Origin: Parcubacteria group bacterium
GTDB lineage: Bacteria; Patescibacteriota; Minisyncoccia; SW-4-49-11
Direction of reading: 5' to 3'
DNA length: 64,000 bases
Assembly: GCA_943354045.1 (NCBI GenBank)
Contig: CALRBF010000001.1
Coordinates: 259,860 to 323,859, forward strand
The first letter of the stretch is position 1; every line of letters begins with the position of its first letter. The position numbers and the translations under genes were made by a program. The notes beneath the pieces were generated by a model. That model had not been told where the DNA came from, did no database searches, and saw only the letters and a list, made by a program, of their open reading frames with translations. Positions 5,966 through 27,452 of this stretch are shown piece by piece.

Positions 5966-5981
5966 ACCGATACTCCCATGC

Positions 5982-6010: not shown

Positions 6011-6038
6011 TGTAATCAATAAGATAATAATATTCAAT

Positions 6039-6572: not shown

Positions 6573-6575
6573 AGT

Positions 6576-10079: not shown

Positions 10080-10158
10080 CTTGAAAATATATTAACCATT
10101 ATCTAGAGTGTATCCCAAGATTATCAATACTGTCAAATAGATAAATTATTCTCTTGAT

Positions 10159-10677
10159 TTATAAACCCAATGAAGAATCTGATAAAACATCTCCTTCTAT
10201 ATCTGTATCTATACTTTGTACTTCTGCACTAATGGCATCAGCCTGCACCTTAGTATCTGTAGATACGGGAGTAGTATCAAGAGTACTTTGTGTATTAGCT
10301 GGAGTGGTTGCAGGTAATATAGATGCATCCTCTACAGGCTTATCCTGATCTTGATAATATCGATATACACTTACGGCTCCTATTACAAGCGCAAAGAATA
10401 CTAAGAATACTACTACTCCCCATAATAATGGTCGAGTTACTACTTCTTTTTTTGCTAAATTTTCTATTGGGCTTACGGGTTCAGTTACAGTAGGAGCTGG
10501 TGTTGGAACTGCTACCTCCTCAGGAGTAAATGAAGTTAGCCCAGTATTATTTTCTGGCACTGAATTAGGGGTTGAAACAGATTCAGGATTAATGGAGACT
10601 GGATTAACTGAAGCTGATATTGTGGGTTCTGATATTGTTGATTGATCTACATTATTAGTTTCAAGATTGTCGCTCAT
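10159..10677 (-). CDS. Hypothetical membrane-anchored low-complexity (P/T/S-rich) protein
   Basis: Single TM helix 'LLWGVVVFLVFFALVIGAVSVY'. Confidence 0.45.
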   Translation of the reverse strand: MSDNLETNNVDQSTISEPTISASVNPVSINPESVSTPNSVPENNTGLTSFTPEEVAVPTPAPTVTEPVSPIENLAKKEVVTRPLLWGVVVFLVFFALVIGAVSVYRYYQDQDKPVEDASILPATTPANTQSTLDTTPVSTDTKVQADAISAEVQSIDTDIEGDVLSDSSLGL

Positions 10678-10698
10678 ATGAGTACTATTATATTGATA

Positions 10699-11616
10699 TT
10701 ATTGAATTGGAGCTGTATTTGTAGCCGGGACTGTATTGGTCGGAGTTGTGGTATTACCTGATTCTGTTGAAGCTGGTTGTTGTGGTTTTATACTTCTAAG
10801 ATAAGGAATAATCGTTTCTTTCATATAAGTCCTAATGGCTTTATCCTGGCTAATAATAACCTTTAGATCAGATTTACGAGTATTCAATTCTGTTGCTGCC
10901 TTGTCTTTAGTACAAAGCTGAGCACTATCAGATTGAAGAGAAGCTATATATTTTTGGGTGAGAGTATTTAAATCAGTAACTTTTGAATTAACCTCAGCTA
11001 CATACCCATTATAGGTGGTAACATCTACACCTAATTCTGCTAATTTTACTGAAACTGATTGCAATCGAGTAATAATTTTATTATATTTACCAAGTCTTTT
11101 TTCAGCTTTTGCCTTTAATTCATTTTGATGTTCAGCAATTTTATTACTAATTTCCTGACACTTATCCTTGATTTTCTTCTCTCGCTCTGGCCCTACAGTA
11201 ATTTGCTCAGACAAAGAATCTACTGAGTCATCTTGGCCTTCATCATTTGGATTCAACCTATCTTGTTTATCTTTTTTCTCTAAATTTTGTTTTTCAGCTT
11301 CTTTTGCTTTTTCAGACATTTTTTTAGTTTGTTCTTTTTGTTTTTCTGTTAATTGCTGATTTTGCTCTTTTTGTCGCTCTAATAATTTTTGCTGAGCCTC
11401 ATTTTGATTTTCATTAGAAGGCATTTGATTAATACCTGTTTGAGACCTACCCTCTCCTGTTTTTTGTGACTGCTTCTGAAATTCAAGCTGACTTTCTTGA
11501 GCTTTTTTATCTAATTCTGAGGCTTCATCTTTAGCCAAGATGGTTTTCACCACTACAAATGAACCCCCAAGAACAATAATACTTGCGCAGATAATGGACA
11601 AAAGATGTGATTTCAT
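10699..11616 (-). CDS. Hypothetical secreted or anchored coiled-coil protein (Q/E/K-rich)
   Basis: N-terminal signal/TM helix; long charged coiled-coil-like stretch. Confidence 0.45.
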   Translation of the reverse strand: MKSHLLSIICASIIVLGGSFVVVKTILAKDEASELDKKAQESQLEFQKQSQKTGEGRSQTGINQMPSNENQNEAQQKLLERQKEQNQQLTEKQKEQTKKMSEKAKEAEKQNLEKKDKQDRLNPNDEGQDDSVDSLSEQITVGPEREKKIKDKCQEISNKIAEHQNELKAKAEKRLGKYNKIITRLQSVSVKLAELGVDVTTYNGYVAEVNSKVTDLNTLTQKYIASLQSDSAQLCTKDKAATELNTRKSDLKVIISQDKAIRTYMKETIIPYLRSIKPQQPASTESGNTTTPTNTVPATNTAPIQ

Positions 11617-11914
11617 ATATTAGTTTTATGTATATAATCAAGTATAGCACTCCCCAAAAACTTGTCAAGAATTCACACCCCGAGAGCCTCTCTTAACTCA
11701 TCACTCACTTTCCAGGTCGGGGTAAAGAGATATTAATAGTACTAGATTTAGTTGGGATACTATTATATGAGAGAGTTCTTTTATGTTGTTTTACATAAAA
11801 TGTATAGGGACTATTATTTTTGATAATAAAACTAATATAATTATAGTGATTGGTATATATGTATTTATATTTATATATATATTTAGTCTAAATGTGTTTT
11901 TAAAACTTTTATGC

Positions 11915-13753
11915 TTATTGAGCAACTTCTCTTACATCTCTATTGCCAAGATAAATTACTTTTGCCTTAGCCGTATAAAGATTATCATATGGCTCATCAG
12001 TCATTTCTACAACAAATTCTGATGCACCTATTATCGCCTCACTTACATTTGTTTTGGGATCAACAACTAATTCAACATCCCAGAAGGCGTTAGTAGTACC
12101 TGAGGCATCAGCCACCTTAACTATTTCCTCAGGAGAAGTCAACCTATACCCTTTAGGGATTTTTGCAAGTTTATACTTATGTGTATCATTCAAGTTTGCA
12201 CCTTTTGTATTAGCTAGTATTTTAGTTTTTCTAAATTTATTATAAACGATAGTTGGCTTAGCTGACGCTGCCAAAGTAACTGTTTGATCTGGATATATTG
12301 TAAATGCTTTACTAGCAGAAACTGATACTGATCCACCATAAGGATTACCTGGGTAGCTTCTCTTACAATCATCTGTATTTGAACCTGATGAGCAGTTTAT
12401 ACTAAGACTACATGTTAATGTACTCGTATAATCACCGGGCTTTAGTCGACTTGGATCATAGCTAATTGTATAGTCTGCATTCTGATCTACCTTTTCAAGA
12501 TATTGTCCTGTTGCACCATTAATAGGTAAGAAGTCTACAATTTGCTTGCCTTGTTTAAAGTCAATATTCAATCCGCTTTTAGAAAGAAATGGTATAACTT
12601 CTCCCGAAGAATTTTTTGTTTCTATATTACAACTTCCAGCATTAGCATTCTCTATTTGCCAAGATTTTCTAATTGGACTATTTCGATAAATCAGTTGACT
12701 TGGTCTATCTCTATGATTAATTAGATATGAGTTTAGAGTAATATTGGGCTGTTGCACTCTTGGAGTATAGGTAAAGTAATGCACTCTATGGCATTCTCTC
12801 CAAAATGGAAATGGGGACCAACAGGGAGCATCTCGTCGATAACTACTGTATACCATTTCATAGTTAAATGCTAATTTTAATGTTTCATAACTATTATTAT
12901 AAAATGTGCTAAAAAAAGAATATGGTCCTGGCTTTGCATTGTCGGAGCGTATACCATATTGATACAAACCACCCCATCTATATTGATTAGGGGCTGCATT
13001 TTGTAATATAGTGCTATGATCTGTAAATGCTTGATAAGGACTAGCAATTGCACCTATTGTTGTAAAACCTGGATAAGCACCAAAATTAACAGCTCCATTA
13101 TTGCATTCTGCATATACTCCTTTTACATTACCACAATCTTTGACAGCTGTCATATTATTAAAGGACCAATTTACTCTTTCTAGACGCTCTTCACTGACAC
13201 TACTCGGATAGGCACAAACATTATACTTAGGAGTAGAAGGTTGAACAGGGCGGTTCAAGAGAAACTGGTACCAGGAAGATGTACTAGTCGGAGGAGGAGT
13301 GTTATAATCAAGTATAGCTTTTAATATAGTATCACAGCTATAAGATCCATGTGTAGTCATACCCTTTACAGTATATTTACCATTACTTGAAATTGAAGCA
13401 TCTAGACCATTAATATTATATTGTGAAAGTCTTTCTACGTAAGAAACTGGCACATCTGTACATACAAAAGGTTGGGGTGGCTGTTCAGCAGGAGCTGTAC
13501 ATTTAGTTAAACTCGAGCAGTATTGTGGAAAAGCCACGCAAAGGAACTTACTCCAGTTGTTTTGGATTGAAGCCAAACAATTTGTACATTCGCCACACTT
13601 ATTACATTTAGATGTTTGTTGCTGCTGCTGTTGTTGCTGTTGTTGCCTCCCATGCACAACATTAAAGGTACCCGCAAATGATATCAAACCTATGGCGACG
13701 AACGATGCAAGCAATATAAACAGCTTTGGGTTTTTATTTAACTGTTTTACCAT
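11915..13753 (-). CDS. Hypothetical secreted Cys-containing protein with a poly-Q tract
   Basis: Signal peptide; Q11 tract encoded by an imperfect CAG/CAA run (13614-13646); 'CNKCGECTNC'. Confidence 0.5.
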   Translation of the reverse strand: MVKQLNKNPKLFILLASFVAIGLISFAGTFNVVHGRQQQQQQQQQQTSKCNKCGECTNCLASIQNNWSKFLCVAFPQYCSSLTKCTAPAEQPPQPFVCTDVPVSYVERLSQYNINGLDASISSNGKYTVKGMTTHGSYSCDTILKAILDYNTPPPTSTSSWYQFLLNRPVQPSTPKYNVCAYPSSVSEERLERVNWSFNNMTAVKDCGNVKGVYAECNNGAVNFGAYPGFTTIGAIASPYQAFTDHSTILQNAAPNQYRWGGLYQYGIRSDNAKPGPYSFFSTFYNNSYETLKLAFNYEMVYSSYRRDAPCWSPFPFWRECHRVHYFTYTPRVQQPNITLNSYLINHRDRPSQLIYRNSPIRKSWQIENANAGSCNIETKNSSGEVIPFLSKSGLNIDFKQGKQIVDFLPINGATGQYLEKVDQNADYTISYDPSRLKPGDYTSTLTCSLSINCSSGSNTDDCKRSYPGNPYGGSVSVSASKAFTIYPDQTVTLAASAKPTIVYNKFRKTKILANTKGANLNDTHKYKLAKIPKGYRLTSPEEIVKVADASGTTNAFWDVELVVDPKTNVSEAIIGASEFVVEMTDEPYDNLYTAKAKVIYLGNRDVREVAQ

Positions 13754-13817
13754 ATTGGTTTTAGTTTTGAATTATAAAAATATTATAACACTGAATACAG
13801 TTTTTTTTCAAACAAAC

Positions 13818-14105
13818 CTATATTCCTAGAGCCTCTCTTAATTCGTCACTCACTTTCCAAGGAGGAGTAAAAGTTACATTAATAGTGATAGAATGGGGTT
13901 TAAGAATAGTAAGAGCTGTTTTTAATTCTGCTTGTATGCGGCCCCCAAATGGACAAAGTGGCGTAGTATATGTCATCAAAATAGTAATATCATCCTGCTC
14001 GCTAATGGTAATATCATAAATTAGGCCAATAGTATAAATATCTATATTAATTTCTGGATCTTGAATTGTTTTGCATACTGATATAATATCTTCTTTTGTA
14101 ATCAT
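13818..14105 (-). CDS. sufT: SufT-like Fe-S assembly protein (DUF59/MIP18)
   Basis: 95 aa with 'TPLCPFGG' DUF59 signature; ATGA overlap with sufC. Confidence 0.7.
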   Translation of the reverse strand: MITKEDIISVCKTIQDPEINIDIYTIGLIYDITISEQDDITILMTYTTPLCPFGGRIQAELKTALTILKPHSITINVTFTPPWKVSDELREALGI

Positions 14106-14815
14106 ATATATGCATTATATCCTTGTGATTGAATCCGAGATAAAACTTGAATATCACCCTTTTCTACCACAATACCATTTTTGATTACTGTCACTTTATT
14201 AGGTATAAGTTCTAATTGTCCTTGATGAGTAATAATAATAAAAGTCATACCATTTTGATTCAATTGTTTGAGCTCTGATGACATTAATTTGAGAGCATCG
14301 ATATCAAGTCCGGAATCAGGCTCATCTAATATTGCTAATTGAGGCTTCAAGATAAGTAATTGTAATAATTCTAAGCGCTTTCGTTCTCCTCCGGAAAACC
14401 CCTCATTAACCCCTCGGGATAAAATTGATTCATCAAGCCCAAGCCTCTTCACCTCCTCAACCACTCGGGTACGGAATTCTAATACATTTACTGGTCCATT
14501 CATAGCTTGATAGGCATTTTTGATAAGGCTTAAAATACTTACTCCCCGTATAGCTGGAGGATATTGCATAGATAAAAATAGTCCTAATTTAGCTCGCTTA
14601 TCTGGAGATAACTCTACAATATTCTCATTTTTAAAAAATATATTTCCTTCAATATTATATTCTGGATATCCCGCAATAGCTAAAGCCAGAGTGCTTTTAC
14701 CACTTCCATTTGGCCCCATGAGATAATGGATATTTCCCTCATCTATATCAATTGATATATCCTTGATAATACTTTTCTCATCTTTTTTGATGATTATATG
14801 TTCTAATTTTAGCAT
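14102..14815 (-). CDS. sufC: Fe-S assembly ATPase SufC
   Basis: Walker A 'GPNGSGKST'; ABC signature; stop TGA. Confidence 0.88.
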   Translation of the reverse strand: MLKLEHIIIKKDEKSIIKDISIDIDEGNIHYLMGPNGSGKSTLALAIAGYPEYNIEGNIFFKNENIVELSPDKRAKLGLFLSMQYPPAIRGVSILSLIKNAYQAMNGPVNVLEFRTRVVEEVKRLGLDESILSRGVNEGFSGGERKRLELLQLLILKPQLAILDEPDSGLDIDALKLMSSELKQLNQNGMTFIIITHQGQLELIPNKVTVIKNGIVVEKGDIQVLSRIQSQGYNAYI

Positions 14816-14850
14816 AAACTATATTACCCAATTGACTTATTAATTATTCT

Positions 14851-15210
14851 TTATATTATCATCTCTTGGGCAGTGCGTAAAGCTAAAGTTACACATTTTA
14901 TACGCGTATTTTCCATATCAATACCAAGCCATTGATATAATTGTTCGGCTGAAATAGTGGAGATCTCAGCAATAGATAGCCCTTTCAATCTCTCAGTGGT
15001 AATAGAGGCTCCCGCAATACACAAAGCACAACCAACTCCGTCAAAACTCGCCCCCACAATAATTTCATCCTGAATATCTAAATATAATTTAATATCATCA
15101 CCACAATTAGGATTAAACCCCTGTTGATGATGTGTATAATGATTTAATTTCCCTTTATTGAGGGGGTTGCGATATAAATCAAGTATATATTCTCTATATA
15201 TATCATCCAT
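14851..15210 (-). CDS. sufU: SufU/IscU-like sulfur acceptor scaffold
   Basis: 'NCGDDIKLY...GVGCALCIAGAS...ERLKG' conserved Cys triad. Confidence 0.75.
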   Translation of the reverse strand: MDDIYREYILDLYRNPLNKGKLNHYTHHQQGFNPNCGDDIKLYLDIQDEIIVGASFDGVGCALCIAGASITTERLKGLSIAEISTISAEQLYQWLGIDMENTRIKCVTLALRTAQEMII

Positions 15211-15211
15211 A

Positions 15212-16414
15212 TTATTGAAATTTGTGATAAATACTATCTAATTCTCGCATTAATATATCAATTTCCTCTACCGTATTATATATCCCAAATGTTACCCGTA
15301 TACTGCCCGCTATACCCAGTTTTTCGGTAATACCACTCGCACAATGTTGCCCTGCTCTCACGCAAATACTTTGCTTGGCCAGTAAATAAGAAATATCATG
15401 CGTATGTATACCCTTAATGGTAAAAGCAAAGCATCCAATACGAGGAATGCTCTTTTCTCCACCCAATAATTCTATCCATGGACGTGAGACAATTTGCTGC
15501 CACATATATTGAATTAATTCTTGCTCATGATTTTGAATGAATTCCCAACCAATATCTTGAGTCCATTGTATGGCTCGGGCAAGCCCAATTACCTCGGCAA
15601 TGGGTGGGGTTCCCGCCTCAAATCTCTGTGGAATGGGAGCGTATTCCATAGTATCTAAGGTCACATATTCAACCATATCTCCACCAGTTCGATGGGGTTT
15701 GAGATTTTGTAATAATGTATAATTTACCCATAATACTCCTATACCTGTAGGTCCATATAATTTATGCCCCGAAAATGCATAGGCATCTATCCCCAAATCA
15801 GATACGGAAATCGGTATATGAGCAACAGCCTGGGCTCCATCTACTATACATAGAGCCCCTACTTTATGAGCTTTATCTGAGATTTTCTTCGCATCATGAA
15901 TAGTTCCGAGTACATTAGATATATGTCCTATAACTACTAAAGCTGTCTTCTCATCAATAGCAGCTAGAAGGGCTAGCTCATCTAAAATACCTCCTTTAAG
16001 CCCAATATATCGTATTTCTAAACCTTGCCTGCGCGCAAATTCTCGCCATGGAAGCATATTACTATGATGCTCAGTCACAGGAATAATAATATTTTGGCCC
16101 TTTTCAAATCTATCTTGTAGGAGTTCTGCAAGCATATTAATACCATCCGTAGTACCTCGCGTAAAAATAACTTCTTCAGGTCGATTAGCCCCAATAAATT
16201 GAGCTATTGTCTCGCGAGCATTCTCATATTCTGTAGTTGCCCTCTCGGAGAAATCATATAATCCTCTATGAATATTAGAGCGATATTCCCTGTAATACGT
16301 ATTCATAGCATCCAAAACTACATTAGGCGTAAGAGCGGACGCGCCTGAATCAAGATAAATAATATCCTGAATCAATGGTGAAAATTCTAATCTAATAGTG
16401 TCAATTAACTTCAT
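15212..16414 (-). CDS. sufS: Cysteine desulfurase SufS
   Basis: PLP lysine context 'SGHKLYGPTGIG'; 'RAGQHCA' active-site loop. Confidence 0.88.
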   Translation of the reverse strand: MKLIDTIRLEFSPLIQDIIYLDSGASALTPNVVLDAMNTYYREYRSNIHRGLYDFSERATTEYENARETIAQFIGANRPEEVIFTRGTTDGINMLAELLQDRFEKGQNIIIPVTEHHSNMLPWREFARRQGLEIRYIGLKGGILDELALLAAIDEKTALVVIGHISNVLGTIHDAKKISDKAHKVGALCIVDGAQAVAHIPISVSDLGIDAYAFSGHKLYGPTGIGVLWVNYTLLQNLKPHRTGGDMVEYVTLDTMEYAPIPQRFEAGTPPIAEVIGLARAIQWTQDIGWEFIQNHEQELIQYMWQQIVSRPWIELLGGEKSIPRIGCFAFTIKGIHTHDISYLLAKQSICVRAGQHCASGITEKLGIAGSIRVTFGIYNTVEEIDILMRELDSIYHKFQ

Positions 16415-16468: not shown

Positions 16469-17722
16469 ATGGAAACCCTAAGACCCATACAAGAACAAGA
16501 AAAACCGTTTTCTGAGTATTCATTGACGGAAATTATAGATGAGATATATACTTCAAACGCTGAGGGAGGGGATGGAGATTTAAGACAAGATTTAGACAAT
16601 ATATCCTTTCAAAAAGAAAAGGAATCTGAGATATTACAACAACTTATAATCTCCTCTGAGGAGCAATCTTCTAATACAAGATATCAAAGACAAATCCATA
16701 TTTTAAAACAAAAATTAGAAGAAATTCAATCATCTCAAAAAGTATATGAGGCTTGCCAAGAGTTGAATTCATATCATTTAGAAGGTAGTTTAGAATTAGA
16801 AGGTGATTCTGTAGAATTTTTATTAGAAAGATATCGTACATATCAGACACTTTTAAATTCTTTAGATGAATCAGAATCTAGTCTTGCCAAAACAGATATT
16901 AAAGCTATTATGGATATTTATTATGCCAAGATTTTAGAAATAATAGCTGAAACTGGAATTGATAAAAAATATGGATTTGGATTTGCTGAAGGAAGAGAGA
17001 TGTCAATAGAATATCTTAGTGATTTAATAATCCCAGATACCGAAAACCCAGAATTTGCTAGATATAAAGAAAGGTCTAGTAAAATAACTCAAGGGAATGC
17101 TAGGTTTTTAACTGAAGGGGAAGAAACAACTACTCAAGATGATTTAAAATGCGCGGAATCAGAAAGAATAGTCACTGAAGAATTATCCCAAGTTCCAGGA
17201 GTGCTAGCTACCATAGACATACCTAAATTTTCAATTGGGGATACCCGGCACAAAGCTGACACTATAGCAATTACTCTTAATCCAGAATTAGTAGATTCTA
17301 TTACTGATCAAGAGATTCAATTAGCAATATATAAAATGATAGAAGCGTATAGAGTAGCTTTATTAGATCATATGATGAAACAAGATGAAAACTCTCTTAT
17401 AAACCCTAGAGACAATATTTTAGGAGATATTATTAGGGTAAATCGTAATATAAAATTAGATAATATTGCTGCTAATTTAAAAGAAAAGGATATAGATTTG
17501 TCACAAATTTTAAGAATTCACAAAATACAAATCAAAACTCAAGCAAGTGAAATGTCCATAACAGCAGAAAAATACAAAGCTAGTAAAATGGCGGTTAGCC
17601 CAGATAAAGTTGGTTTTTTGGCTAGAGAATATCATCCATCAGGAGATCCTCAAGCTGAGGAATTTAATCGATTGCATTTTCAAATTGCAGCTCAAACAGT
17701 TTTGGGAATATCTATAAAATAA
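16469..17722 (+). CDS. Hypothetical acidic protein (no recognisable domain)
   Basis: 417-aa ORF inserted between the two suf blocks on the opposite strand. Confidence 0.45.
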   Translation: METLRPIQEQEKPFSEYSLTEIIDEIYTSNAEGGDGDLRQDLDNISFQKEKESEILQQLIISSEEQSSNTRYQRQIHILKQKLEEIQSSQKVYEACQELNSYHLEGSLELEGDSVEFLLERYRTYQTLLNSLDESESSLAKTDIKAIMDIYYAKILEIIAETGIDKKYGFGFAEGREMSIEYLSDLIIPDTENPEFARYKERSSKITQGNARFLTEGEETTTQDDLKCAESERIVTEELSQVPGVLATIDIPKFSIGDTRHKADTIAITLNPELVDSITDQEIQLAIYKMIEAYRVALLDHMMKQDENSLINPRDNILGDIIRVNRNIKLDNIAANLKEKDIDLSQILRIHKIQIKTQASEMSITAEKYKASKMAVSPDKVGFLAREYHPSGDPQAEEFNRLHFQIAAQTVLGISIK

Positions 17723-17726: not shown

Positions 17727-18065
17727 TTGCCAATATTGTTTTTATATGTTAATGTATATTTCCATTTGAGGATAATTTTGAACTATCAACAATTTCTTGA
17801 AATTTGGCCAAATTTATTTGCTATATTTGAAACAGTAAATAGAATTAATCCTCCTGACTTAACTATAAGTCTCAGTTCTCATTGGAAATACCATCCTAAC
17901 TTCACTGACTCCAAAATCTATGGGATAAATGGAGAGTTAATTGGTAGCGAAAATTGCTACTTTATATTACCCTGTAATCAAAATGGATTCCCTATAAATC
18001 CACCAACCATTTTATTGAAAGAATGGCGAGACATCAGACAATACCTATCATCCACCCCGCACTGA
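17727..18065 (+). CDS. Hypothetical protein
   Basis: 112 aa, 4 nt after the previous ORF, followed by a terminator. Confidence 0.35.
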   Translation: MPILFLYVNVYFHLRIILNYQQFLEIWPNLFAIFETVNRINPPDLTISLSSHWKYHPNFTDSKIYGINGELIGSENCYFILPCNQNGFPINPPTILLKEWRDIRQYLSSTPH

Positions 18066-20218: not shown

Positions 20219-20860
20219 ATGGATATCTTCTTTAGCTACCTTATGGACAATGGTGTGCCGCGTGAAACTATAGACATTCTTTTGATGTTTCCGATTATGG
20301 CAGGATTTATTGTAGCCGCCCGACAAATTGTGGGGATTAAAGCTTTTGGTATATATACACCGCTTATTATTACCTTTGCTTTAACAGAAATTGGCTTCAA
20401 ATATGGGGTAAGTATTTTTATTGTATCCCTGATTGTCGCTTCTATTGTCCGATATCTCCTTCGCAAAATTCGTATTCTGTATTTACCCAAAATGGCTTTG
20501 ATACTTTCTATTACTGCCTTATCTATGTTTTTGAGCCTGGTATGGGGAATATTCTCGGATAGCACCGTCTTTGTACAGGCTTCTATTTATCAGATTCTTA
20601 TTATTATTACTCTGGTAGAAAAATTCATCAATGCTCAAATGGAAAAAGGATATCGTACCGCCGTAACTCTCTCTGTAGAAACCTTAATTCTTGCATCTCT
20701 TGGAAATTTAATTATGACCACTACTCAGCTAAGAGACCTCGTTTTCTATAATCCTTGGATTATTTTAATTGTCTTTGCGGGAATTATATTCCTTGGACGC
20801 TATGAAGGACTCCGTATTTCTGAATATATCCGATTCCGTAAAATTATTAGCAATCAATAA
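20219..20860 (+). CDS. Seven-transmembrane protein of the RimK-like ligase cassette
   Basis: 213 aa with seven predicted hydrophobic helices; 4-nt gap to the next gene. Confidence 0.55.
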   Translation: MDIFFSYLMDNGVPRETIDILLMFPIMAGFIVAARQIVGIKAFGIYTPLIITFALTEIGFKYGVSIFIVSLIVASIVRYLLRKIRILYLPKMALILSITALSMFLSLVWGIFSDSTVFVQASIYQILIIITLVEKFINAQMEKGYRTAVTLSVETLILASLGNLIMTTTQLRDLVFYNPWIILIVFAGIIFLGRYEGLRISEYIRFRKIISNQ

Positions 20861-20863
20861 GCT

Positions 20864-22285
20864 ATGAATTGGCTAGAATCATTCGTATTTAGTCAAAAAA
20901 TACTCGGGATGAATGCCCGTAATCTTATCTTTATCAAGCCTTATAATTACCGTAAATGGGTGCGCCTAGTAGATAATAAAATTAAATTCAAAAAAGAATT
21001 ACAAAAACATAATATCCCCACCCCAAAACTCATCGCCACAGTTCGCTCTTATGAAAAACTTAATGAATTTGATTATAATAAACTTCCTAAAAGCTTTGTA
21101 TTAAAACCAACCTCTGGATTTGGAGGAGAAGGTATTGTGGTAATATTTGGAGAACATAAAAAAAGAACCGCCGATGGGGAGAGACAATGGGTCAAAACTA
21201 AAGGAGTAAAACTCAGTGAGACAATGATACATAATCATATGAGCAATATTCTTGATGGAACATATTCTCGTACCAATAGCCCCGATGTGGCCTTCTTTGA
21301 AGAGCGAATTAAACTCAACAAATCATTCAAACATCTTGCCTATAAAGGAATTCCTGATATTCGCGTAATTGTATTCAATCGCATTCCCGTAATGGCAATG
21401 ATACGAATTCCTACCAAAGAATCTGATGGTAAGGCTAATCTTCATCTTGGAGGAATTGGTATTGGTATTGATATGGCAACAGGAGTTACTACCAATGCTA
21501 TTATGAGAGAAAGATTCATAGATACCATTCCAGGGACGGAAATCAGTCTTTCTGGTATACGTATACCCTATTGGAATACAATTTTAGATATTGCGATTCG
21601 TACCGCTGATATTACCAGATTAGGATTTACAGGGATAGATATTGCTATTGACCGTGATGCAGGTCCTGTTGTATTAGAAGCGAATGCCCGACCGGGTCTC
21701 GCTATTCAAATTGCCAATCTCGCCCCCCTCAAAGAAAGATTACAAAAAGTCAAAGGGCTTAAAGTGAAAACGGTAAAAAGAGCTATTAGGCTCGCTAAAG
21801 ATTTGTTCGGAGGAGAAATTGAAGAAGAAATTGAGGAAATTACTGGGCGACAAGTGATTGGACTTATTGAGGAAATTACATTATTTGGAAAAGATGATAA
21901 AAAACAAACCATAGAAGCCAAGGTAGATACGGGGGCAGGAAAAACATCTATTGATGAAAAGCTAGCTATTGAACTAGGTTATGCTGAAGTTTTAGAGCAT
22001 ATGAAAAAATTTAACATCAAGCCCGTTCTGACTTTAGATGAAATCAATGAACTATCCAAAAACAAAGTCTGGCGACAAATTGAAGAACATCCCGATATAG
22101 TGGGTGTCTCTAAAGTAAAAAGTAGTCACGGCTATTCTTATAGACCAATAATTTATATCAAGCTTAAAGTAGGAGATGAGATTTTTGAAACTAAAGCCAA
22201 TATTATAGCTAGACAAGATTTAAAATATTCAATAATTTTAGGAGAAAACTCTCTCAAAAGATTTATTATTGATCCAAGGAAGTAA
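20864..22285 (+). CDS. RimK-related ATP-grasp amino-acid ligase fused to a C-terminal retropepsin-like (DUF785/COG4067-type) protease domain
   Basis: 'IPTPKLIA', 'VLKPTSGFGGEGIVVIFG', 'VLEANARPGLAIQ' ATP-grasp motifs; C-terminal 'KVDTGAGKTSID' D-T-G-A aspartyl motif. Confidence 0.7.
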   Translation: MNWLESFVFSQKILGMNARNLIFIKPYNYRKWVRLVDNKIKFKKELQKHNIPTPKLIATVRSYEKLNEFDYNKLPKSFVLKPTSGFGGEGIVVIFGEHKKRTADGERQWVKTKGVKLSETMIHNHMSNILDGTYSRTNSPDVAFFEERIKLNKSFKHLAYKGIPDIRVIVFNRIPVMAMIRIPTKESDGKANLHLGGIGIGIDMATGVTTNAIMRERFIDTIPGTEISLSGIRIPYWNTILDIAIRTADITRLGFTGIDIAIDRDAGPVVLEANARPGLAIQIANLAPLKERLQKVKGLKVKTVKRAIRLAKDLFGGEIEEEIEEITGRQVIGLIEEITLFGKDDKKQTIEAKVDTGAGKTSIDEKLAIELGYAEVLEHMKKFNIKPVLTLDEINELSKNKVWRQIEEHPDIVGVSKVKSSHGYSYRPIIYIKLKVGDEIFETKANIIARQDLKYSIILGENSLKRFIIDPRK

Positions 22286-22287
22286 AA

Positions 22288-23643
22288 TTATTGGGGTAAA
22301 ACTATATTTTCTCTAATCCAATCGACTACTTTTTGAGTACGTAAATCATCAATATATTCCCAGGATAATATTACTCTAACTACCCTTTCTCTATTACCTA
22401 ATTGGGTAAAATTCATTGGCATTTGCGATACTATAAACTCATTTTTATTTTTATGTTCAAATTCTAGTGAATTACTTTGTCTTAATATTTTATTTTCTAA
22501 AATATAATATAATCCGGGCTGGATACTTTGCTTTGGAAATACCTTCCCTTTCAACAAATTTTTATCTATAAAAAAAACCATTTGAGATATTGAAAAAGAG
22601 TCTCTGGTGACATATAACGTTTGAATATCCTTATAATCCAAGTTGTTTTCTCCTACAAATTCCTTTATATGCAAACTTAATGGAGAAGGAATATTAACTT
22701 GTGAGTAAAACATATCAATTATAGGAAAAGCTGCTGTAATTCTTGGATTACACTCAATGATTTTAATTTCTTGTTTTTCAGTAATAATGAAATCAATTCC
22801 AAATATACCTTTATATCTAAATTCTTTATTTAATACACTTCCTATAATCTGAATGTATTCTATGACCTTATCATATAATATATGTTTATTAGGTATGCTA
22901 TTACCCATAAATTTACCATTTATATCCGTATTAGAGGCTTCTCCTAAAACTAAATTTTTATCACCAATTATTTGATTATAGGGAGATGTCACAACTGTCC
23001 CATTACCATAATTAATACCTATTATTGCCATTGTCTTACCTTTTATATATTCTGTCACAATATACTTTTGATACCCTTCATCTTTAATTTTAGATAAAAT
23101 TGAATTATAATCTAATTCAGAGAAAATAAAATATGTTCCATTTCCCCCAGAAGTACAGTCCCCTTGTATTACAAATTCCTCAACCTCATAGTCTTTATAG
23201 TTTGTTTGTAATAACTGTTCCCTTGTTAAAACCTTAGTTTTCGGACAAAAAGTATATTGCTCAATTAACTTTCTAAAATTTACTTTATTTTCTAAATATT
23301 CTTGAGTTTCTAAGTCGTTATTTAAAATATTCAAATTATACTTCAATTTCAATTCTTGAGTTAGCTCAGACTGTTTCTGAAATAAGACTCTGTTATCTAC
23401 CTTTTTTAACATCTGCATCCAATCAGGATGATTTTCAACATTAGCTTGATTATATCTTATTAAATTTAATTCTTCATCTGAAAGGTGATTATCCAAATTA
23501 TAAAATATATCAGGATCTAAAAACTGATTATCAGCACCCCCTATTACAGAAAAAACATAGCAACTTTTATTTTTCATTGCATAATCATAAAATATATTTG
23601 GGCTTGAAGAAGCTAAAATAACATCATGATTAATATTTTTCAT
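22288..23643 (-). CDS. Second ATP-grasp superfamily protein
   Basis: 'CTSGGNGTYFIF' and 'IIECNPRITAAFP' resemble ATP-grasp B-loop and catalytic motifs; convergent with the RimK-like gene (2-nt gap). Confidence 0.5.
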   Translation of the reverse strand: MKNINHDVILASSSPNIFYDYAMKNKSCYVFSVIGGADNQFLDPDIFYNLDNHLSDEELNLIRYNQANVENHPDWMQMLKKVDNRVLFQKQSELTQELKLKYNLNILNNDLETQEYLENKVNFRKLIEQYTFCPKTKVLTREQLLQTNYKDYEVEEFVIQGDCTSGGNGTYFIFSELDYNSILSKIKDEGYQKYIVTEYIKGKTMAIIGINYGNGTVVTSPYNQIIGDKNLVLGEASNTDINGKFMGNSIPNKHILYDKVIEYIQIIGSVLNKEFRYKGIFGIDFIITEKQEIKIIECNPRITAAFPIIDMFYSQVNIPSPLSLHIKEFVGENNLDYKDIQTLYVTRDSFSISQMVFFIDKNLLKGKVFPKQSIQPGLYYILENKILRQSNSLEFEHKNKNEFIVSQMPMNFTQLGNRERVVRVILSWEYIDDLRTQKVVDWIRENIVLPQ

Positions 23644-23695
23644 ATAATATTAAATTTATGATAATATATAAAAATACTACTATATCTAAACTCAT

Positions 23696-25531
23696 ATGTC
23701 TATTGAAACCAATACAAAATCTATAGCAAATAATGAGCAAAAACCGACTCTTTATCCAGAAAGACCATCATATTCTGCTCAAATACTATTATATGAAATA
23801 GCTCAATATGAGTCGGGTGAAAGAGAGAAGGAAATACTTTCTGATGAGGAAAAACAAGATTTAATAGAATTTGAAAATCCTTTTGTAGACAGAATTGCAG
23901 AATATTATAAGTTAGCAACTGGTAAAAAAGTTTTATATCCAGAATATTTTGATACCCCAGAAGGTCAAGTAACTTTAAAAGCAATTCCTGAATTTGCATC
24001 CCTTGATGGAGATATTGATATTAGGGGGAATATTGCAATTTTGAGAGCATTAAAACCTAAAATCATAACAGATTTAGTAAAAATTAGTACGGATTGGAAT
24101 ACTAATACTATGGTAGAGACTTTATCTCAACATATTAATCCTGATACGGGAGAACTTGATATAGAGGGTATTGAAAACCCAGAAAAATTAACCTATATTC
24201 AATATCCTGCTAACTTAACGGCAAAAATTGAAGGGTTAGAAGCAATAAGGCAAGAATTAAAACAAAAGCGATCTGACTTATATGCAGAAGAGGCTTCTGA
24301 CACTACCGATATAAGTAAAGCTTTAATACATGCTAAAATATTTCGCGTACAAGCATTAATTAAAAGAATTAATGTCATCATTGCAGAAACTAAAGAACAA
24401 GAAACATTTTTACGGAGCGAAGAATCCCATATTCCGCATAAACCTCCCTATAAATTAGATAAATTTATATATGGAGTAAGTACACTTGATACTGATACGG
24501 GTAATTATAATCAGGTAGATAATCATTTATTAGCAATGGCTGATGATATTGCTGAATTAAATAAATCAATTAATCAAGAAAAGGCTCAAATTCTCTTAGA
24601 AAAAGGCCTAGACCAAGAAAAATTAGAAGAGAAGAATATTACTCCCGAGGAGGCAAAACAATATTTAGATCAAATTCTTGCAAGCTATGACCTCTTGAGT
24701 GAATATCCTGCCGATGCTGAGCAAGTAGCTAAAAATATAAAGCCTGCCGATAATAAGTGGAGATGCTATATTAGACCAGGGAAAAGCACTCTTGAAATCG
24801 ATAGTCAAAGTAAGACATTATTAATCCCCCCCCTAAATATAGATGTTCAAAAACTCATTACAAAGGCAGCTACTCATGAAATAATTCATATTCTTCAAAG
24901 AGAAAATACTGTTCAAATTGGTTTACCTCTTTATACACATCCTAGTCAAATTGCAGGAGATAGAGCTGAATTATTCCAAGAAGGTGGGGCTATGTATTAT
25001 CAAGATCAAATATCTCAAGAGTTATTTGGATATGAAAGCCCTCCTCAACCCAATTATCTTAGAGCCATGGCCACCAAACAATCTGGAGGTACTTATATAG
25101 ATTGTGTAAAAACATATTATGAAAGTATTCGCTCTCTACAATCACACTCAGTAAGTCAATCTGAGTTAAAAGAATTTATACAAAAAGCACTTAGTGGCTC
25201 AATAAGATTATTCAGGAATTCCTCTTTTGATAATACTGACACCCAAATTTCTAATACAAAAGATACCGTATATTTAGAACAGAAAGCTGTAATAGAAGCT
25301 ATTTTAAAGTATCCAGAACTTAAAAACATTATATTAGTATCTGGAATTAATCTCGAAACAGCAAAAGAAATGATTCATTTTGGGTTATTAGATTTGAGTA
25401 AGCTCAGAACACCAGATTTATCTTATGTCAAAGAGCTTTGGGAAGAATTACGTCCTGATTATACATTAGATCATGAACCCCAAGACCAAAATCCCTCACT
25501 CACCCCTCCCTCCGATCTCCCCCTAGTATAA
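23696..25531 (+). CDS. DUF1704 / QEGLA-motif (MATCAP-like) putative zinc metallopeptidase with a long N-terminal extension
   Basis: 'ATHEIIHILQRE' HExxH; 'AELFQEGGAMYYQ' QEGLA-like motif; divergent from the ATP-grasp gene. Confidence 0.6.
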   Translation: MSIETNTKSIANNEQKPTLYPERPSYSAQILLYEIAQYESGEREKEILSDEEKQDLIEFENPFVDRIAEYYKLATGKKVLYPEYFDTPEGQVTLKAIPEFASLDGDIDIRGNIAILRALKPKIITDLVKISTDWNTNTMVETLSQHINPDTGELDIEGIENPEKLTYIQYPANLTAKIEGLEAIRQELKQKRSDLYAEEASDTTDISKALIHAKIFRVQALIKRINVIIAETKEQETFLRSEESHIPHKPPYKLDKFIYGVSTLDTDTGNYNQVDNHLLAMADDIAELNKSINQEKAQILLEKGLDQEKLEEKNITPEEAKQYLDQILASYDLLSEYPADAEQVAKNIKPADNKWRCYIRPGKSTLEIDSQSKTLLIPPLNIDVQKLITKAATHEIIHILQRENTVQIGLPLYTHPSQIAGDRAELFQEGGAMYYQDQISQELFGYESPPQPNYLRAMATKQSGGTYIDCVKTYYESIRSLQSHSVSQSELKEFIQKALSGSIRLFRNSSFDNTDTQISNTKDTVYLEQKAVIEAILKYPELKNIILVSGINLETAKEMIHFGLLDLSKLRTPDLSYVKELWEELRPDYTLDHEPQDQNPSLTPPSDLPLV

Positions 25532-25582: not shown

Positions 25583-25996
25583 ATGACAATCAAAATACAT
25601 ACAGATGGTGCTTCTCGTGGAAATCCAGGTCCTGCTTCTCTTGGAGTAGTGATTGAGTTACCAGATGGGAGTATTAAAACCCATCATCAAACTCTTGGTA
25701 TTGCGACTAATAATTATGCTGAGTATCAGGCTATTGTGGTGGCTCTCGAGAAAACAAAATCCCTTGTCGGTAAGGTGAATACCAAAAAATATGCGGTAGA
25801 GGTGTATTTGGACTCAGAGCTTGCCCAAAAGCAATTGACAGGTATTTATGAGCTTAAAGATGAAGCTATTCAAAAAGCTTTTATTCAAATTTGGAATTTG
25901 AGAATTAAATTCAAATCCGTTGATTTTATACATATTCGCCGAGAATTCAATAAACAAGCTGATGCTCTTGCCAATAAAGCTTTAGATGAAGTATAA
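25583..25996 (+). CDS. RNase H-like protein (small type-1 RNase HI family)
   Basis: 'IHTDGASRGNPGPASLGVVIE', 'NNYAEYQAIVVAL', 'DSELAQKQL' RNase H catalytic-residue context. Confidence 0.7.
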   Translation: MTIKIHTDGASRGNPGPASLGVVIELPDGSIKTHHQTLGIATNNYAEYQAIVVALEKTKSLVGKVNTKKYAVEVYLDSELAQKQLTGIYELKDEAIQKAFIQIWNLRIKFKSVDFIHIRREFNKQADALANKALDEV

Positions 25997-27452
25997 TATA
26001 TATAATATGAATAGAAACACACAAAAAATCTTTGCCCGATCACTTGTAATTCTCTTCTTTATCATAGCTCCGATACTGGTTTTATATGGTATGGGATATA
26101 GACTTAGTCGTGATAATAATGATTCTCCTATATTGACTTCTACTGGAGGAGTTAGAATAAACACCAAAATTGCCTATGAAATCACTATCAATGATAAATT
26201 AGAATCCAAAAGTCCGCTTTTAAAAGTTGGGCTTGCTCCTCAAGATTTAAATATTGTCTTATCACTACCAGGATATCAGTCATGGCCTAAAAAAGTATCT
26301 ATACAGCCCTCTTTTGTACAATTAATTAGTGATGTAACTCTTTTTCCTGAAAAGCCTGAATTAGAGAAATTTAGTGACTTATCCACAGCTCGTAATATAC
26401 AAAGAGTGCCTGATGCTTCTTCAATATTATATACGTCTTATAATCCCAAAGAATCCGGACTTTGGATTCTTAATCTTGATACCCAAATACGCAAGAGACT
26501 GACAGATAGTGTGGCTCTTGGAGGCCTAGATAATCAAGATTATTCTGATTTTGCTTGGGATAATACAGGGAATATTCTTAGCTTCAAAACCTCACTTAAT
26601 AATGTATTCCAATATTTTGTTATAACCAATATTGATACTACTCCAATTCTTACCAATTTTACAACTTTAATTCCAATTGCTGATACTGCAGCCAGTCCCG
26701 TTAAAATTGTTAATCTAGATGCTGATAAATTATTATTCATACAGGGAGGATCATTGTATGAACTTACTCAACAATTTAGTATTCGCTCTGATGCTCTTGT
26801 AGCTGATATAACACATAGTGATTTTGTAGATAATACTATTTATTATGCTTCTGATAAAGATACTAATGTGGATATTATTCGTATTTATACTCTTGATAGC
26901 AAAAAAAGTACCGCAGTTGACACACCCGACATTGGTATTGATAAGGTATTTGTCAGTCCTAATCAAGGTCATATTATTATATTAGATGACAAACAACATG
27001 CTTGGCTCAAATCACTGGGAGATAAAACCCCAGGATTTAACCAAATTTCCGATCTTGAAATTACAGATATACAATTTAGCCTAGATTCTAAAAAAACCCT
27101 TCTCAAGGGTAAAAATAGCCTTTCCATACTATATCTTGATACCATTGAAGGGTACAAATCTCGTATAGAGGGAGATTTTGATACATTATATACAAGTGAG
27201 AATACGATCACTAAAGCTGAGTTATGGGAACCAAATTCAGAATATGTCTTATTTATTGAAAATAATACTCTGAAAGTGGTAGAATCTGATACCAGAGGTT
27301 TGGTTAACTCTTATACCTTACTAGATAATGTAATTAATACAGCTAGCATCAAATTACGTAATGATGCTAAGACAATTATAACTAATACTGATAATATTAT
27401 TCAATATTTTAGCTTCCCTATTCGCACTCCTCTTATTAATCTCAATAATTAA
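25986..27452 (+). CDS. Hypothetical membrane-anchored protein (possible PEGA-like domain plus beta-rich region)
   Basis: N-terminal TM 'LVILFFIIAPILVLYGMGY'; 11-nt overlap with the upstream gene. Confidence 0.45.
   Translation: MKYNIYNMNRNTQKIFARSLVILFFIIAPILVLYGMGYRLSRDNNDSPILTSTGGVRINTKIAYEITINDKLESKSPLLKVGLAPQDLNIVLSLPGYQSWPKKVSIQPSFVQLISDVTLFPEKPELEKFSDLSTARNIQRVPDASSILYTSYNPKESGLWILNLDTQIRKRLTDSVALGGLDNQDYSDFAWDNTGNILSFKTSLNNVFQYFVITNIDTTPILTNFTTLIPIADTAASPVKIVNLDADKLLFIQGGSLYELTQQFSIRSDALVADITHSDFVDNTIYYASDKDTNVDIIRIYTLDSKKSTAVDTPDIGIDKVFVSPNQGHIIILDDKQHAWLKSLGDKTPGFNQISDLEITDIQFSLDSKKTLLKGKNSLSILYLDTIEGYKSRIEGDFDTLYTSENTITKAELWEPNSEYVLFIENNTLKVVESDTRGLVNSYTLLDNVINTASIKLRNDAKTIITNTDNIIQYFSFPIRTPLINLNN

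Follow-up and report, generated by a model that had tools for sequence, protein, structure and literature searches.

We propose that a four-gene cassette in a candidate phyla radiation (CPR) bacterium is a CPR version of the rlo/rim type of peptide-tail ligase and protease system, with a MATCAP-like metallopeptidase added. We put the probability of this reading at roughly 0.55. The cassette encodes a bare 7TM protein (P1), a ligase-retropepsin fusion (P2), an accessory ligase (P3), and the metallopeptidase (P4). It lies in a 64-kb stretch of DNA, which we call the window (35.6% GC). The labels on homologs and on matching contigs are Paceibacteria, Paceibacterota, or Parcubacteria, which agrees with the original prediction that the source is a minimal genome, here that of a reduced-genome CPR organism.

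The ORF list and the translations confirmed all four predicted ORFs and the motifs quoted from them (Table 1), including VLKPTSGFGGEG and VLEANARPG in P2 and IIECNPR in P3. The four domain assignments also hold, by profile matches for P1 to P3 and by Foldseek and hhalign for P4. That these are real genes is supported by the ORFs themselves, which are long for a GC content of 35.6%, recur unchanged on several independent metagenome contigs, and are conserved among relatives. The ATG of P2 is 4 nt past the end of P1. Because P2 starts 3 nt past the stop codon of P1, the two genes are probably translationally coupled. P2 and P3 converge, leaving 2 nt between them, and P3 and P4 are divergent. A promoter scan of the P3-P4 spacer found 34 sites, which is not above chance (29 +/- 4.6 expected). 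In hydropathy profiles, P2, P3, and P4 have no hydrophobic segments, and these three proteins are predicted to be cytoplasmic.

Table 1. Coordinates of the cassette's genes and features within the window.
Feature	Position	Strand	Details	Basis
P1	20219-20860	+	213 aa	ORF list
P2	20864-22285	+	473 aa	ORF list
P2 ATP-grasp domain	20894-21763	+	residues ~11-300	TIGR02291 (11-300), PF14397 (19-297)
P2 acidic inter-domain motif FGGEIEEEIEEITG	21806-21847	+	residues 315-328	translation
P2 retropepsin domain	21854-22267	+	residues ~331-468	PF05618
P2 VDTGAG	21923-21940	+		
P2 catalytic D355-T-G-A	21926-21937	+		
P3	22288-23643	-	451 aa	ORF list
P3-P4 intergenic spacer	23644-23695	none	52 nt, AT-rich, divergent	
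P4	23696-25531	+	611 aa	ORF list
P4 predicted metal-binding/catalytic core	24875-24991	+		translations, invariant residues, PF08014 alignment
P4 H394-E395-I-I-H398 (HEIIH)	24875-24889	+		translation
P4 F-Q-E429-G-G431-A432 (FQEGGA)	24974-24991	+		translation
P4 invariant Y526	25271-25273	+		translation

P2 is predicted from its sequence to be a bifunctional enzyme, with an RloC-type ATP-grasp ligase and a C-terminal retropepsin-like aspartic peptidase (RimB/RloA-type). In profile searches, the ligase domain matches ATPgrasp_ST (PF14397; E = 4.6e-68, 229.9 bits) and TIGR02291 (E = 4e-83; its 278.9 bits are below the equivalog cut-off of 314.2). The score for RimK (TIGR00768) is 50.9 bits, far below the cut-off of 143.4. 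The retropepsin domain matches PF05618 (E = 8.3e-8; 32.7 bits vs. a cut-off of 27), is matched more weakly by the models for RloA3, RloA2, RloA1, and RimB, and is similar to PDB:2pma (E = 1.8e-3). The catalytic residues are intact and conserved: K81 (in VLKPTSG), G85, E272 and N274 (the E-x-N of VLEANARPG), A275, and G278 in the ligase domain, and D355, T356, G357, and A358 in the retropepsin domain, are invariant in all 117 of 117 fusion homologs. P2 has thousands of homologs; those listed share its architecture and, where named, are from Patescibacteria, in which the fusion is very common. The acidic motif between the two domains is kept, as FGGEIEEE[IV]EEI[ST]G, across fusion homologs of 50-100% identity. 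We rejected this motif as a site for RimB or RloA because its runs of glutamate are too short, given that RloA cleaves runs of at least 8 (PMC12239564) and RimB runs of at least 5-6 (PMC11957791).

The sequence of P1 identifies it as a membrane protein with multiple passes (~7TM) that belongs to the RloB / PF14402 family. P1 matches 7TM_transglut (PF14402; E = 9.9e-25, 87.9 bits vs. a cut-off of 25) and has about seven hydrophobic segments. It covers only positions 312-506 of the RloB model (NF052267, 508 positions), and it has no N-terminal transglutaminase-like domain or other extracytoplasmic domain. The identity of P1 is 92-95% in close relatives and 38% in three distant loci (L029, L030, and L034), and in all of these its counterpart is directly upstream of the fusion gene. 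(In the same three distant loci, P2 is 38-42% identical and P4 is 22-24% identical.)

P4 is a predicted cytoplasmic gluzincin-type metallopeptidase and a remote homolog of DUF1704/MATCAP (PF08014; TIGR02421, "QEGLA motif protein"; human MATCAP/TMCP1-2). It belongs to a family of ~600-amino-acid proteins that have no Pfam annotation and whose named members are all from Patescibacteria. Searches with the single sequence gave no match in Pfam or the PDB, even at E <= 10. Because a single-sequence profile search is blind to this relationship, the DUF1704 label needed evidence from family profiles and structure. The best five PDB matches from Foldseek are all MATCAP, and MATCAP is the best structural match by two methods. 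When we compared the P4 family to a true PF08014 protein (one that passes the PF08014 threshold), hhalign gave a probability of 98.1% (E = 1.3e-13), and the family's motifs aligned with HEIEGH, FQEGLA, and KDVAY. Both families share the His-Glu-His, a downstream third-ligand glutamate in a Q-E-G-x-A-like motif, and K-D-x-x-Y. H394, E395, H398, E429, Y526, and G260 are invariant across 65 diverse members of the P4 family.

The kinship to DUF1704/MATCAP, first predicted from HExxH together with FQEGGA, is therefore real but remote, and P4 is not a member of DUF1704 by the Pfam or NCBIfam thresholds. Only 3 of the 65 family members have even sub-threshold matches to DUF1704. P4 has HExxH instead of the HExxxH of MATCAP (19 of the 65 do have HExxxH), and it is only ~12% identical to MATCAP, with an additional helical N-terminal half of ~300 residues. 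Also, the substrate of P4 cannot be tubulin.

P3 is an accessory ATP-grasp ligase of the biotin-carboxylase (BC)/PurK/PylC/L-amino-acid-ligase (LAL) type, and it matches ATP-grasp_3 (PF02655, E = 4e-12). The expectation of a second ATP-grasp ligase was correct, but P3 is not RimK- or TTL-like: its fold is nearest to BC, PurK, PylC, and LAL. P3 is structurally unlike the protein-tail ligases, and it looks recently acquired.

The genes are syntenic in distant lineages and not only in close relatives, as expected if the ligases and the peptidase form a functional pair. A RimK-like ligase is within three genes of the P4-family gene in 9 of 13 informative, independent lineages, with P4 identity as low as 22%, and some glutamyl-type ligase is nearby in 10 of the 13. 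In L029, L030, and L034, the order on one strand is 7TM, fusion, one or two RimK-like genes, and P4-like; L023, L025, and L032 keep this order up to the point where the contig ends. In L027/L033 and L028, a RimK-like ligase abuts the P4-like gene, without the 7TM or fusion genes. L044 has standalone RimB-like and RimK genes 1.6 kb upstream of the P4-family gene, and in L010 a gene for a CofE-type gamma-glutamyl ligase lies 16 bp upstream. Most often, the ligase gene and the P4-like gene share a strand, and the spacers between them are short or overlapping. The sole bona fide PF08014 protein that was sampled (L039) has no adjoining ligase. Overall, gene linkage supports reading the cassette as ligase plus peptidase.

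P4 might instead be a general housekeeping metallopeptidase that is beside the cassette because of lineage-specific synteny and is not coupled to the ligases. Among close relatives, the entire region is syntenic (SUF genes, the cassette, RNase H, and ribosomal protein genes), so adjacency there proves little. There is no ligase near the P4-family genes of L005, L041, and L042, and several loci from Falkowbacteria, Moranbacteria, and other CPR bacteria (L011-L013) have the cassette without P4. P4 also diverges much faster than P1 and P2 do (51% vs. 90-92% identity in L008). But we consider a housekeeping role very unlikely, given the linkage to RimK-like genes across such deep divergence and the recurrence of three configurations (7TM with the fusion; RimK-like alone; standalone RimB with RimK). 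Furthermore, ATP-grasp genes are rare in these genomes, and the window has just two, both in the cassette. A similar question arises for P3, which could be a recently inserted small-molecule ligase with its own function that is in the gap between P2 and P4 by chance. Besides its fold and its opposite strand, P3 is compositionally foreign (26.7% GC), its family is rare and lineage-restricted (12 clusters), and the closest relative (L014), whose P4 is 87% identical, does not have it. Nevertheless, P3 is kept at 69-81% identity in several relatives, and the variable slot that separates the fusion from P4 contains, whenever it is occupied, genes for ATP-grasp ligases: P3 in the window, L008, L009, L017, and L019, and RimK-like genes in L006, L015, L016, L018, and L020. 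This pattern favors functional replacement by another enzyme of the same class over random insertion, and we doubt that P3 is outside the system.

Another alternative is that the ligases make an oligo- or poly-amino acid that stays free, or that they act on a cell-wall or lipid-linked precursor. Export or scaffolding of the product would then fall to the 7TM protein, and the cytoplasmic peptidases would control its length or protect the cell from a toxic product. A class A PBP is directly after the cassette in L011-L013, and a PBP is directly after P4 itself in L025. In Pseudomonas aeruginosa, rlo mutants show phenotypes that concern osmotic conditions, morphology, and beta-lactams, and the rloA triple mutant is suppressed when rloB or rloC is lost, as expected if the product of RloBC is harmful (PMC12239564). 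RimK makes free poly-alpha-glutamate in vitro (PMC11957791). P3 is similar to L-amino-acid or small-molecule ligases, as is a ligase of 424 aa in L028, and none of the proteins in the window ends in a poly-Glu or strongly acidic tail that would suggest a substrate. On the other hand, the retropepsin is fused to a cytoplasmic ligase, and a signal peptide is missing from P4, which implies trimming before any export. P1 lacks an extracytoplasmic domain, and we know of no transporter activity for PF14402. The window has no PBP neighbor, and the adjacency elsewhere could be lineage synteny. We view this pathway as possible but not probable.

Under our preferred reading, an rlo/rim type system with a MATCAP-like addition, the ATP-grasp ligase or ligases would, at the membrane, extend an acidic peptide on a carboxylate acceptor. 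The added residue is probably alpha-L-glutamate, by extrapolation from RimK. The acceptor may be a protein C-terminus, as in the C-terminal tagging that was originally predicted, or a growing free oligomer. The original prediction also had a membrane or secreted substrate, whereas both peptidases are predicted to be cytoplasmic. The retropepsin domain, as a homodimer of P2, would cleave oligo-Glu runs endoproteolytically. P4 would then trim residues from the remaining C-terminus; we infer that it acts as a carboxypeptidase rather than as an endopeptidase. Synthesis and two-tier trimming would determine how long the tail or polymer is and how fast it turns over, and there may be physical coupling to P1.

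The cassette had been proposed as an undescribed system, but its core matches the theme of the rloABC operon of P. aeruginosa (Lormand et al. 2025, mBio; PMC12239564). Both combine a PF14402 7TM protein (RloB), a TIGR02291/PF14397 ATP-grasp ligase (RloC), and a PF05618 retropepsin with a catalytic D-T-G (RloA) in one operon. However, RloB has a periplasmic inactive transglutaminase domain, while P1 is the 7TM module alone; RloA is a separate, secreted protein with a signal peptide; and the published operon has three genes, without a MATCAP-like metallopeptidase or accessory ligases. The cassette scores below the NCBIfam cut-offs for RloA and RloB, so by that standard these are not orthologs. 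Ligase-retropepsin hybrids are also known, in the opposite order: in RimBK, RimB is N-terminal and RimK is C-terminal (Little et al. 2025, JBC; PMC11957791). RimK polyglutamylates RpsF, and the Rim system shares with P2 the pairing of a cytoplasmic ATP-grasp ligase (a glutamate ligase in Rim) with a retropepsin (oligo-Glu-cleaving in Rim), and with the cassette the logic of a writer plus an eraser. But P2's ligase domain is of the RloC/ATPgrasp_ST subfamily, rim systems have neither a 7TM partner nor a metallopeptidase, and RimBK is mainly found in Flavobacteriales and Rhodobacterales, not CPR (PMC11957791).

In eukaryotes, MATCAP family enzymes trim C-terminal tails, opposing the ATP-grasp TTL/TTLL ligases, and TMCP1/2 are also deglutamylases (PMC10499314). 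These tubulin-code pairs (TTL/TTLL vs. MATCAP/TMCP and CCP) and the CPR loci both pair the same enzyme superfamilies, an amino-acid ligase of the ATP-grasp type and a metallopeptidase of the MATCAP fold, and the CPR loci encode the pairing as an operon. This likeness is only an analogy: the bacterial ligases are RimK/RloC-type (with faint matches to the TTL Pfam), and the cassette also has a retropepsin and a 7TM protein.

The core of the cassette is the known rlo/rim theme, and the cassette is a variant of a recently described bacterial system. In this variant, a compact set of genes in a CPR bacterium with a small genome brings together ligases that add amino acids and two different enzymes that cut peptides.

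The four genes of the cassette encode a 7TM protein (P1), a fusion of an RloC-type ATP-grasp ligase to a retropepsin (P2, or "the fusion"), an accessory ATP-grasp protein (P3), and a MATCAP-like metallopeptidase (P4). The four reading frames have exactly the coordinates that were originally predicted, and all of the quoted motifs are present in their translations. Several independent metagenome contigs carry the same four genes unchanged. (The homologs and matching contigs are labeled Paceibacteria, Paceibacterota, Parcubacteria, or Minisyncoccia, with a few Saccharibacteria, so the window derives from a CPR/Patescibacteria genome.) A literature search found no paper that treats this cassette in Patescibacteria. 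The P1-P2 pair is conserved in CPR loci L006-L035 (our numbering of homologous loci). As in the rlo system, the functions of this pair are encoded in one operon. A scan for promoters and terminators gave results at chance level, which is uninformative about operon structure.

Features of the cassette, its surroundings, and homologous loci
Locus	Feature	Position	Strand	Remarks
Window	P1	20219-20860	+	213 aa
Window	P2	20864-22285	+	473 aa; ATG 3 nt past P1 stop
Window	P2 acidic linker	21806-21847	+	residues 315-328
Window	P3	22288-23643	-	451 aa; convergent with P2, gap 2 nt
Window	P4	23696-25531	+	611 aa; divergent from P3, spacer 52 nt
Window	ORF	16469-17722	+	417 aa; no Pfam or NCBIfam match
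Window	ORF	17727-18065	+	112 aa; no Pfam or NCBIfam match
Window	RNase HI	25583-25996		
Window	ORF	25986-27452	+	488 aa; no Pfam match
L029, L030, L034/35	7TM, fusion, 1-2 RimK-like, P4-like			all on one strand
L023, L025, L032	same order as in L029, L030, L034/35			interrupted by contig edge
L027/33, L028	RimK-like ligase adjoining P4-like			no 7TM or fusion within ~7-10 kb upstream
L044	standalone RimB-like (139 aa) and RimK (301 aa, Rimk_N domain)	5083-6424		1.6 kb upstream of P4-like
L010	CofE-type F420-0:gamma-glutamyl ligase (PF01996)			16 bp upstream of P4-like
L010	CofE-type ligase and dihydrofolate reductase, flanking P4-like	1122-1841, 3700-4239		reductase convergent, downstream of P4-like
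L005, L041, L042	P4-like			no ligase nearby
L011	7TM partner	5473-7026		PKD-domain extension
L013	7TM partner	5347-6987		PKD-domain extension
L034	7TM partner	5411-6340		~95-aa N-terminal extension
L020	P4 homolog as two overlapping ORFs	10001-11011, 10992-11933		336 and 313 aa
L029	class I SAM methyltransferase	6790-7398		between ligases and P4
L032	DUF3541 protein	875-1876		between ligases and P4
L011	class A PBP	11176-14043		directly after cassette
L012	class A PBP	12267-14786		directly after cassette
L013	class A PBP	12892-15359		directly after cassette
L025	class A PBP	4288-6038		directly after P4

Several unannotated genes lie near the cassette. The 417-aa and 112-aa ORFs split the SUF cluster: they lie in the opposite orientation, with sufS/sufU on one side and sufD/sufB on the other. 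L006 and L008 have ORFs without Pfam annotation at the same place, with the likeness being one of position. On the other side, the 488-aa ORF has an N-terminal hydrophobic segment and overlaps the end of the RNase HI gene by 11 nt. In relatives, an unannotated ORF of 481-485 aa likewise follows the RNase HI gene.

Among the closest known systems is the rloABC operon of Pseudomonas aeruginosa (PMC12239564). Its retropepsin, RloA, is secreted and cuts runs of 8 or more glutamates. RloB combines an inactive transglutaminase with 7TM helices, and RloC, an ATP-grasp protein, is located in the cytoplasm. A triple rloA mutant shows osmotic lethality, which is suppressed when rloB or rloC is lost. The system also plays a part in the morphology of Pseudomonas, its biofilm formation, its osmotic tolerance, and its resistance to antibiotics (PMC12239564). 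P1 and P2 together comprise these three protein families, but with a different architecture. P1 has about seven hydrophobic segments and matches PF14402 (7TM_transglut, E = 1e-24). Its match to the NCBIfam model for RloB covers only positions 312-506 of 508, which is the 7TM part (75.8 bits, versus a cut-off of 900). Since P1 has just 213 amino acids, there is no room for a transglutaminase domain, and unlike RloB it consists of the 7TM part only. More broadly, the N-terminus of the 7TM partner varies. It is bare in the window and in L012 (213-218 aa), has PKD-domain extensions in L011 and L013 (517-546 aa), and is extended in L034 as well. In Pseudomonas RloB, the transglutaminase-like domain occupies the equivalent region.

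In P2, residues 11-300 match profiles for ATP-grasp ligases of the RloC/ATPgrasp_ST subfamily. The score is 229.9 bits for PF14397 (cut-off 31.4) and 278.9 bits for TIGR02291, just short of that model's hypothetical-equivalog cut-off of 314.2. Models for RimK itself score far below their cut-offs (50.9 bits versus 143.4 for the RimK family, TIGR00768; 21.3 versus 331 for the RpsF-glutamate ligase model, PRK10446). By these profile scores, the subfamily of the ligase is clearly RloC-like. Residues 331-468 are a retropepsin of the RimB/RloA type (PF05618, 32.7 bits, cut-off 27); the models for RloA1-3 give 26-35 bits, versus cut-offs of 210-280. RloA is a separate protein with an N-terminal signal peptide, whereas this retropepsin is the C-terminal domain of the ligase and is not secreted: a scan of P2 for signal peptides and transmembrane segments found neither, and there are no signal peptides in the window's version of the system. 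In an alignment of 117 homologs of the fusion, the ATP-grasp residues (K81, E272, and N274) and the aspartic protease motif (D355-T-G-A) are invariant, so both domains should be active. The fusion is not a rarity, as a homolog search gave thousands of matches. The best 120 are all 450-490 aa with the same architecture as P2, and those with a named source are from Moranbacteria, Falkowbacteria, Kuenenbacteria, Parcubacteria, or the Patescibacteria group.

The rim system combines RimK, which polyglutamylates ribosomal protein S6, with the retropepsin RimB, which requires at least 5-6 contiguous glutamates (PMC11957791). A hybrid, RimBK, has the domains in the reverse order, with RimB at 1-163, and its ligase belongs to a different subfamily than that of P2. 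Overall, the cassette's core follows the rlo/rim theme in a new architecture. The two domains of P2 are joined by an acidic segment, FGGEIEEE[IV]EEI[ST]G, that is strongly conserved in all of the fusion homologs that we examined. We considered whether the linker (FGGEIEEEIEE) is a site for self-cleavage by the retropepsin, as in retroviral polyproteins, but it has too few contiguous glutamates, given the requirements of RimB and of RloA (at least 8).

P4 was originally labeled as a DUF1704 protein. The homology is real, but P4 does not reach the curated thresholds for DUF1704/MATCAP (PF08014 and TIGR02421). As a single sequence, P4 had no match in Pfam or among PDB sequences, even at E ≤ 10, or in NCBIfam at E ≤ 1. 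Searches of PDB sequences with two profiles of its family (alignments A1 and A2) also found no match. The relationship to MATCAP is visible only by comparing structures or by comparing profiles to each other. The AF2 model of P4 is confident (pLDDT 84.9, pTM 0.82) and has the MATCAP-type gluzincin fold: when it was compared to the PDB with Foldseek, the top five matches were human MATCAP, and nothing else was close. For the profile comparison, we used a 490-aa protein from our metagenome scan (at L039) that is a true member of PF08014 (32.4 bits; the gathering score is 27). hhalign aligned the P4-family profile to this protein across 218 columns (residues 313-538 of P4) with 98.1% probability and E = 1.3e-13. 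The alignment pairs HEIIH with HEIEGH, FQEGGA with FQEGLA (the QEGLA-type motif, which includes the presumed third-ligand glutamate), and KDTVY with KDVAY. From the structural and profile evidence together, we conclude that P4 is a remote homolog of DUF1704/MATCAP that lies outside the curated families.

A word-indexed search with P4 found 33 clusters, all lacking Pfam annotations, and an exhaustive profile search expanded the family to 505 representatives at 50% identity, of which 221 scored below 1e-30. Six residues (G260, H394, E395, H398, E429, and Y526) are invariant across 65 diverse members with 20-58% identity, and by their pattern in the alignment they are a gluzincin signature. G431 is nearly invariant in the same 65 members, and A432 is nearly invariant in the 27 sequences of alignment A1. 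Three of the 65 have sub-threshold matches to PF08014, whose Pfam name is now "MATCAP" (best E = 8.7e-4), and three have sub-threshold matches to TIGR02421, "QEGLA" (best E = 6e-5). TIGR02421 is the only NCBIfam model that matched more than one of the 65. MATCAP/TMCP enzymes bind metal with an extended motif, HExxxH (PMC10499314). This form is present in 19 of the 65, and the other 46, like P4 itself, have HExxH. The members are proteins of about 600 amino acids that have an additional helical half at the N-terminus, and those with names are all from Patescibacteria. The family is a new and distant branch of the DUF1704/MATCAP superfamily. (In L020, from a Paceibacteria-like MAG, the P4 homolog is in two pieces (see also proteins P0029 and P0030). 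It is a pseudogene with a frameshift, or else the gene is truly split. One of the truncated 336-aa forms, P0029, occurs on 8 contigs.)

P3 was predicted to be a second ATP-grasp enzyme, and it is one, but not a second RimK. It matches PF02655 (E = 4e-12), has the ATP-grasp fold, including the E-x-N motif that binds Mg/ATP (E297-x-N299, which is invariant), and is of the BC/PurK/PylC/L-amino-acid-ligase type. Its family is very small (12 clusters), and with a GC content of 26.7%, versus about 35.6% for the window, the gene is a compositional outlier. The slot between the fusion and P4 is also variable. It is empty in L014, the closest relative (whose P4 is 87% identical); it holds two or three RimK-like ligases in L006, L015, L016, L018, and L020; and it holds P3 itself in L008, L009, L017, and L019. 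The GC content and the variable slot together indicate that P3 occupies a slot for an accessory ligase and was probably acquired recently. The contents of the slot suggest replacement of genes within one class of enzyme, and we think it unlikely that P3 is an unrelated insertion, as its odd composition and the empty slot in L014 might be taken to mean. (L028 has an L-amino-acid-ligase-like gene, but BLASTP found no similarity between it and P3.)

Is P4 functionally linked to the ligases? In close relatives, the entire region is syntenic (the SUF genes, the cassette, RNase HI, and ribosomal protein genes), so adjacency in those genomes is weak evidence, and we sampled distant loci of the P4 family. 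A scan of genome contigs with alignment A1 found only close relatives; the metagenome scan used a narrower alignment, A4. The distant loci were annotated with Pfam and with HMMs built for this analysis. In L029, L030, and L034/35, the homologs have just 38% (P1), 38-42% (P2), and 22-24% (P4) identity to the window's proteins, and the genes are still together. Counting the window's clade as one lineage, a RimK-like ligase is within three genes of P4 in 9 of 13 informative lineages, and a glutamyl-type ligase of some kind is nearby in 10 of the 13. In L044, whose P4-family protein is deeply divergent and of the HExxH type, the neighbors tie the family to systems of the rim type in addition to those of the rlo type. 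In L010, the neighboring glutamyl ligase is not an ATP-grasp protein.

Given the distant loci, we rejected mere lineage synteny as the cause of the adjacency. Also, P2 and P3 are the only ATP-grasp genes in the 64-kb window. The recurrence of the pairing and this rarity support a functional link of P4 to amino-acid ligases, although not an obligatory one. Some P4-family genes have no ligase nearby, and Falkowbacteria, Moranbacteria, and other CPR have the cassette without P4, in the order YebC, RuvC, 7TM (with or without PKD domains), fusion, one to four RimK-like ligases, and PBP1A. The one true PF08014 gene that we sampled (L039) has unrelated neighbors. Given how often the ligases recur beside P4, we consider it very unlikely that P4 has nothing to do with the cassette. 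The TIGRFAMs descriptions include a proteobacterial neighborhood of three genes: TIGR02291, a 7TM-transglutaminase, and TIGR02421. If this is correct, then the pairing of a ligase with a QEGLA protein already has a precedent. At four of the loci, a class A PBP with transglycosylase and transpeptidase domains directly follows the cassette or P4, and in L011-L013, YebC and RuvC precede the cassette. The adjacency of the PBP may reflect a connection to the cell envelope.

What might the cassette do? At least two ATP-grasp ligases, a retropepsin, and a MATCAP-fold gluzincin are genetically linked to each other and to a 7TM protein. From their conserved residues, all of these enzymes are predicted to be active, and because they lack signal peptides, they are predicted to be cytoplasmic. 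By analogy to the biochemistry of RimK/RimB, RloA, and TMCP, the ligases would build an acidic tail or oligomer, probably of alpha-linked glutamate, at the membrane. The retropepsin domain would cut long runs of glutamate (retropepsins must dimerize, so P2 is presumably a dimer), and P4, as a putative metallocarboxypeptidase, would trim the leftover C-terminal residues. We give this model of synthesis and two-tier trimming a probability of roughly 55%.

The model fits with a protein C-terminus as the acceptor, as originally proposed, and also with a free or exported polymer or an envelope precursor. We looked for S6 or a substrate with an acidic tail among the window's proteins and saw none, so we rejected the idea of a substrate encoded nearby. 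That the product is instead a free or exported polymer, or an envelope precursor, is a tentative possibility: it would explain the adjacency to PBP1A and the phenotypes of rlo, and P3 resembles ligases that act on small molecules, but both peptidases are placed in the cytoplasm. A broader version of the tail model is also speculative, and we doubt it somewhat: RimK/RloC-type ligases and MATCAP-fold peptidases could be an ancient, co-inherited prokaryotic module of writers and erasers that maintains a reversible glutamate tail on a specific protein's C-terminus in CPR. If so, the P4 family (about 500 clusters without Pfam annotation) would be new bacterial carboxypeptidases or deglutamylases of C-terminal tails, and the retropepsin would be a second, endoproteolytic eraser. 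The operon would then be a prokaryotic counterpart of the eukaryotic tubulin code's TTL/TTLL-MATCAP pairing, and possibly its source in evolution.

The individual parts of the cassette will not surprise specialists, but the recurrent pairing of RimK-like ligases with a large, unannotated MATCAP-like family in operons provides a minimal version, easier to work with, of an unsolved system. The CPR form of rlo is stripped down: the 7TM protein has no periplasmic domain, the ligase and the protease are one polypeptide, and the enzymes are predicted to be cytoplasmic. This could make it easier to reconstitute the chemistry of rlo. The pairing of a ligase with a MATCAP fold, as in the tubulin code of eukaryotes, exists as a bacterial operon. 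From its repeated linkage to RimK-like ligases, the MATCAP-like family also suggests a concrete role for bacterial DUF1704-like proteins that can be put to the test, which is to trim the products of amino-acid ligases. Finally, that the cassette is retained in such reduced genomes suggests that its function is important in the cell biology of CPR.
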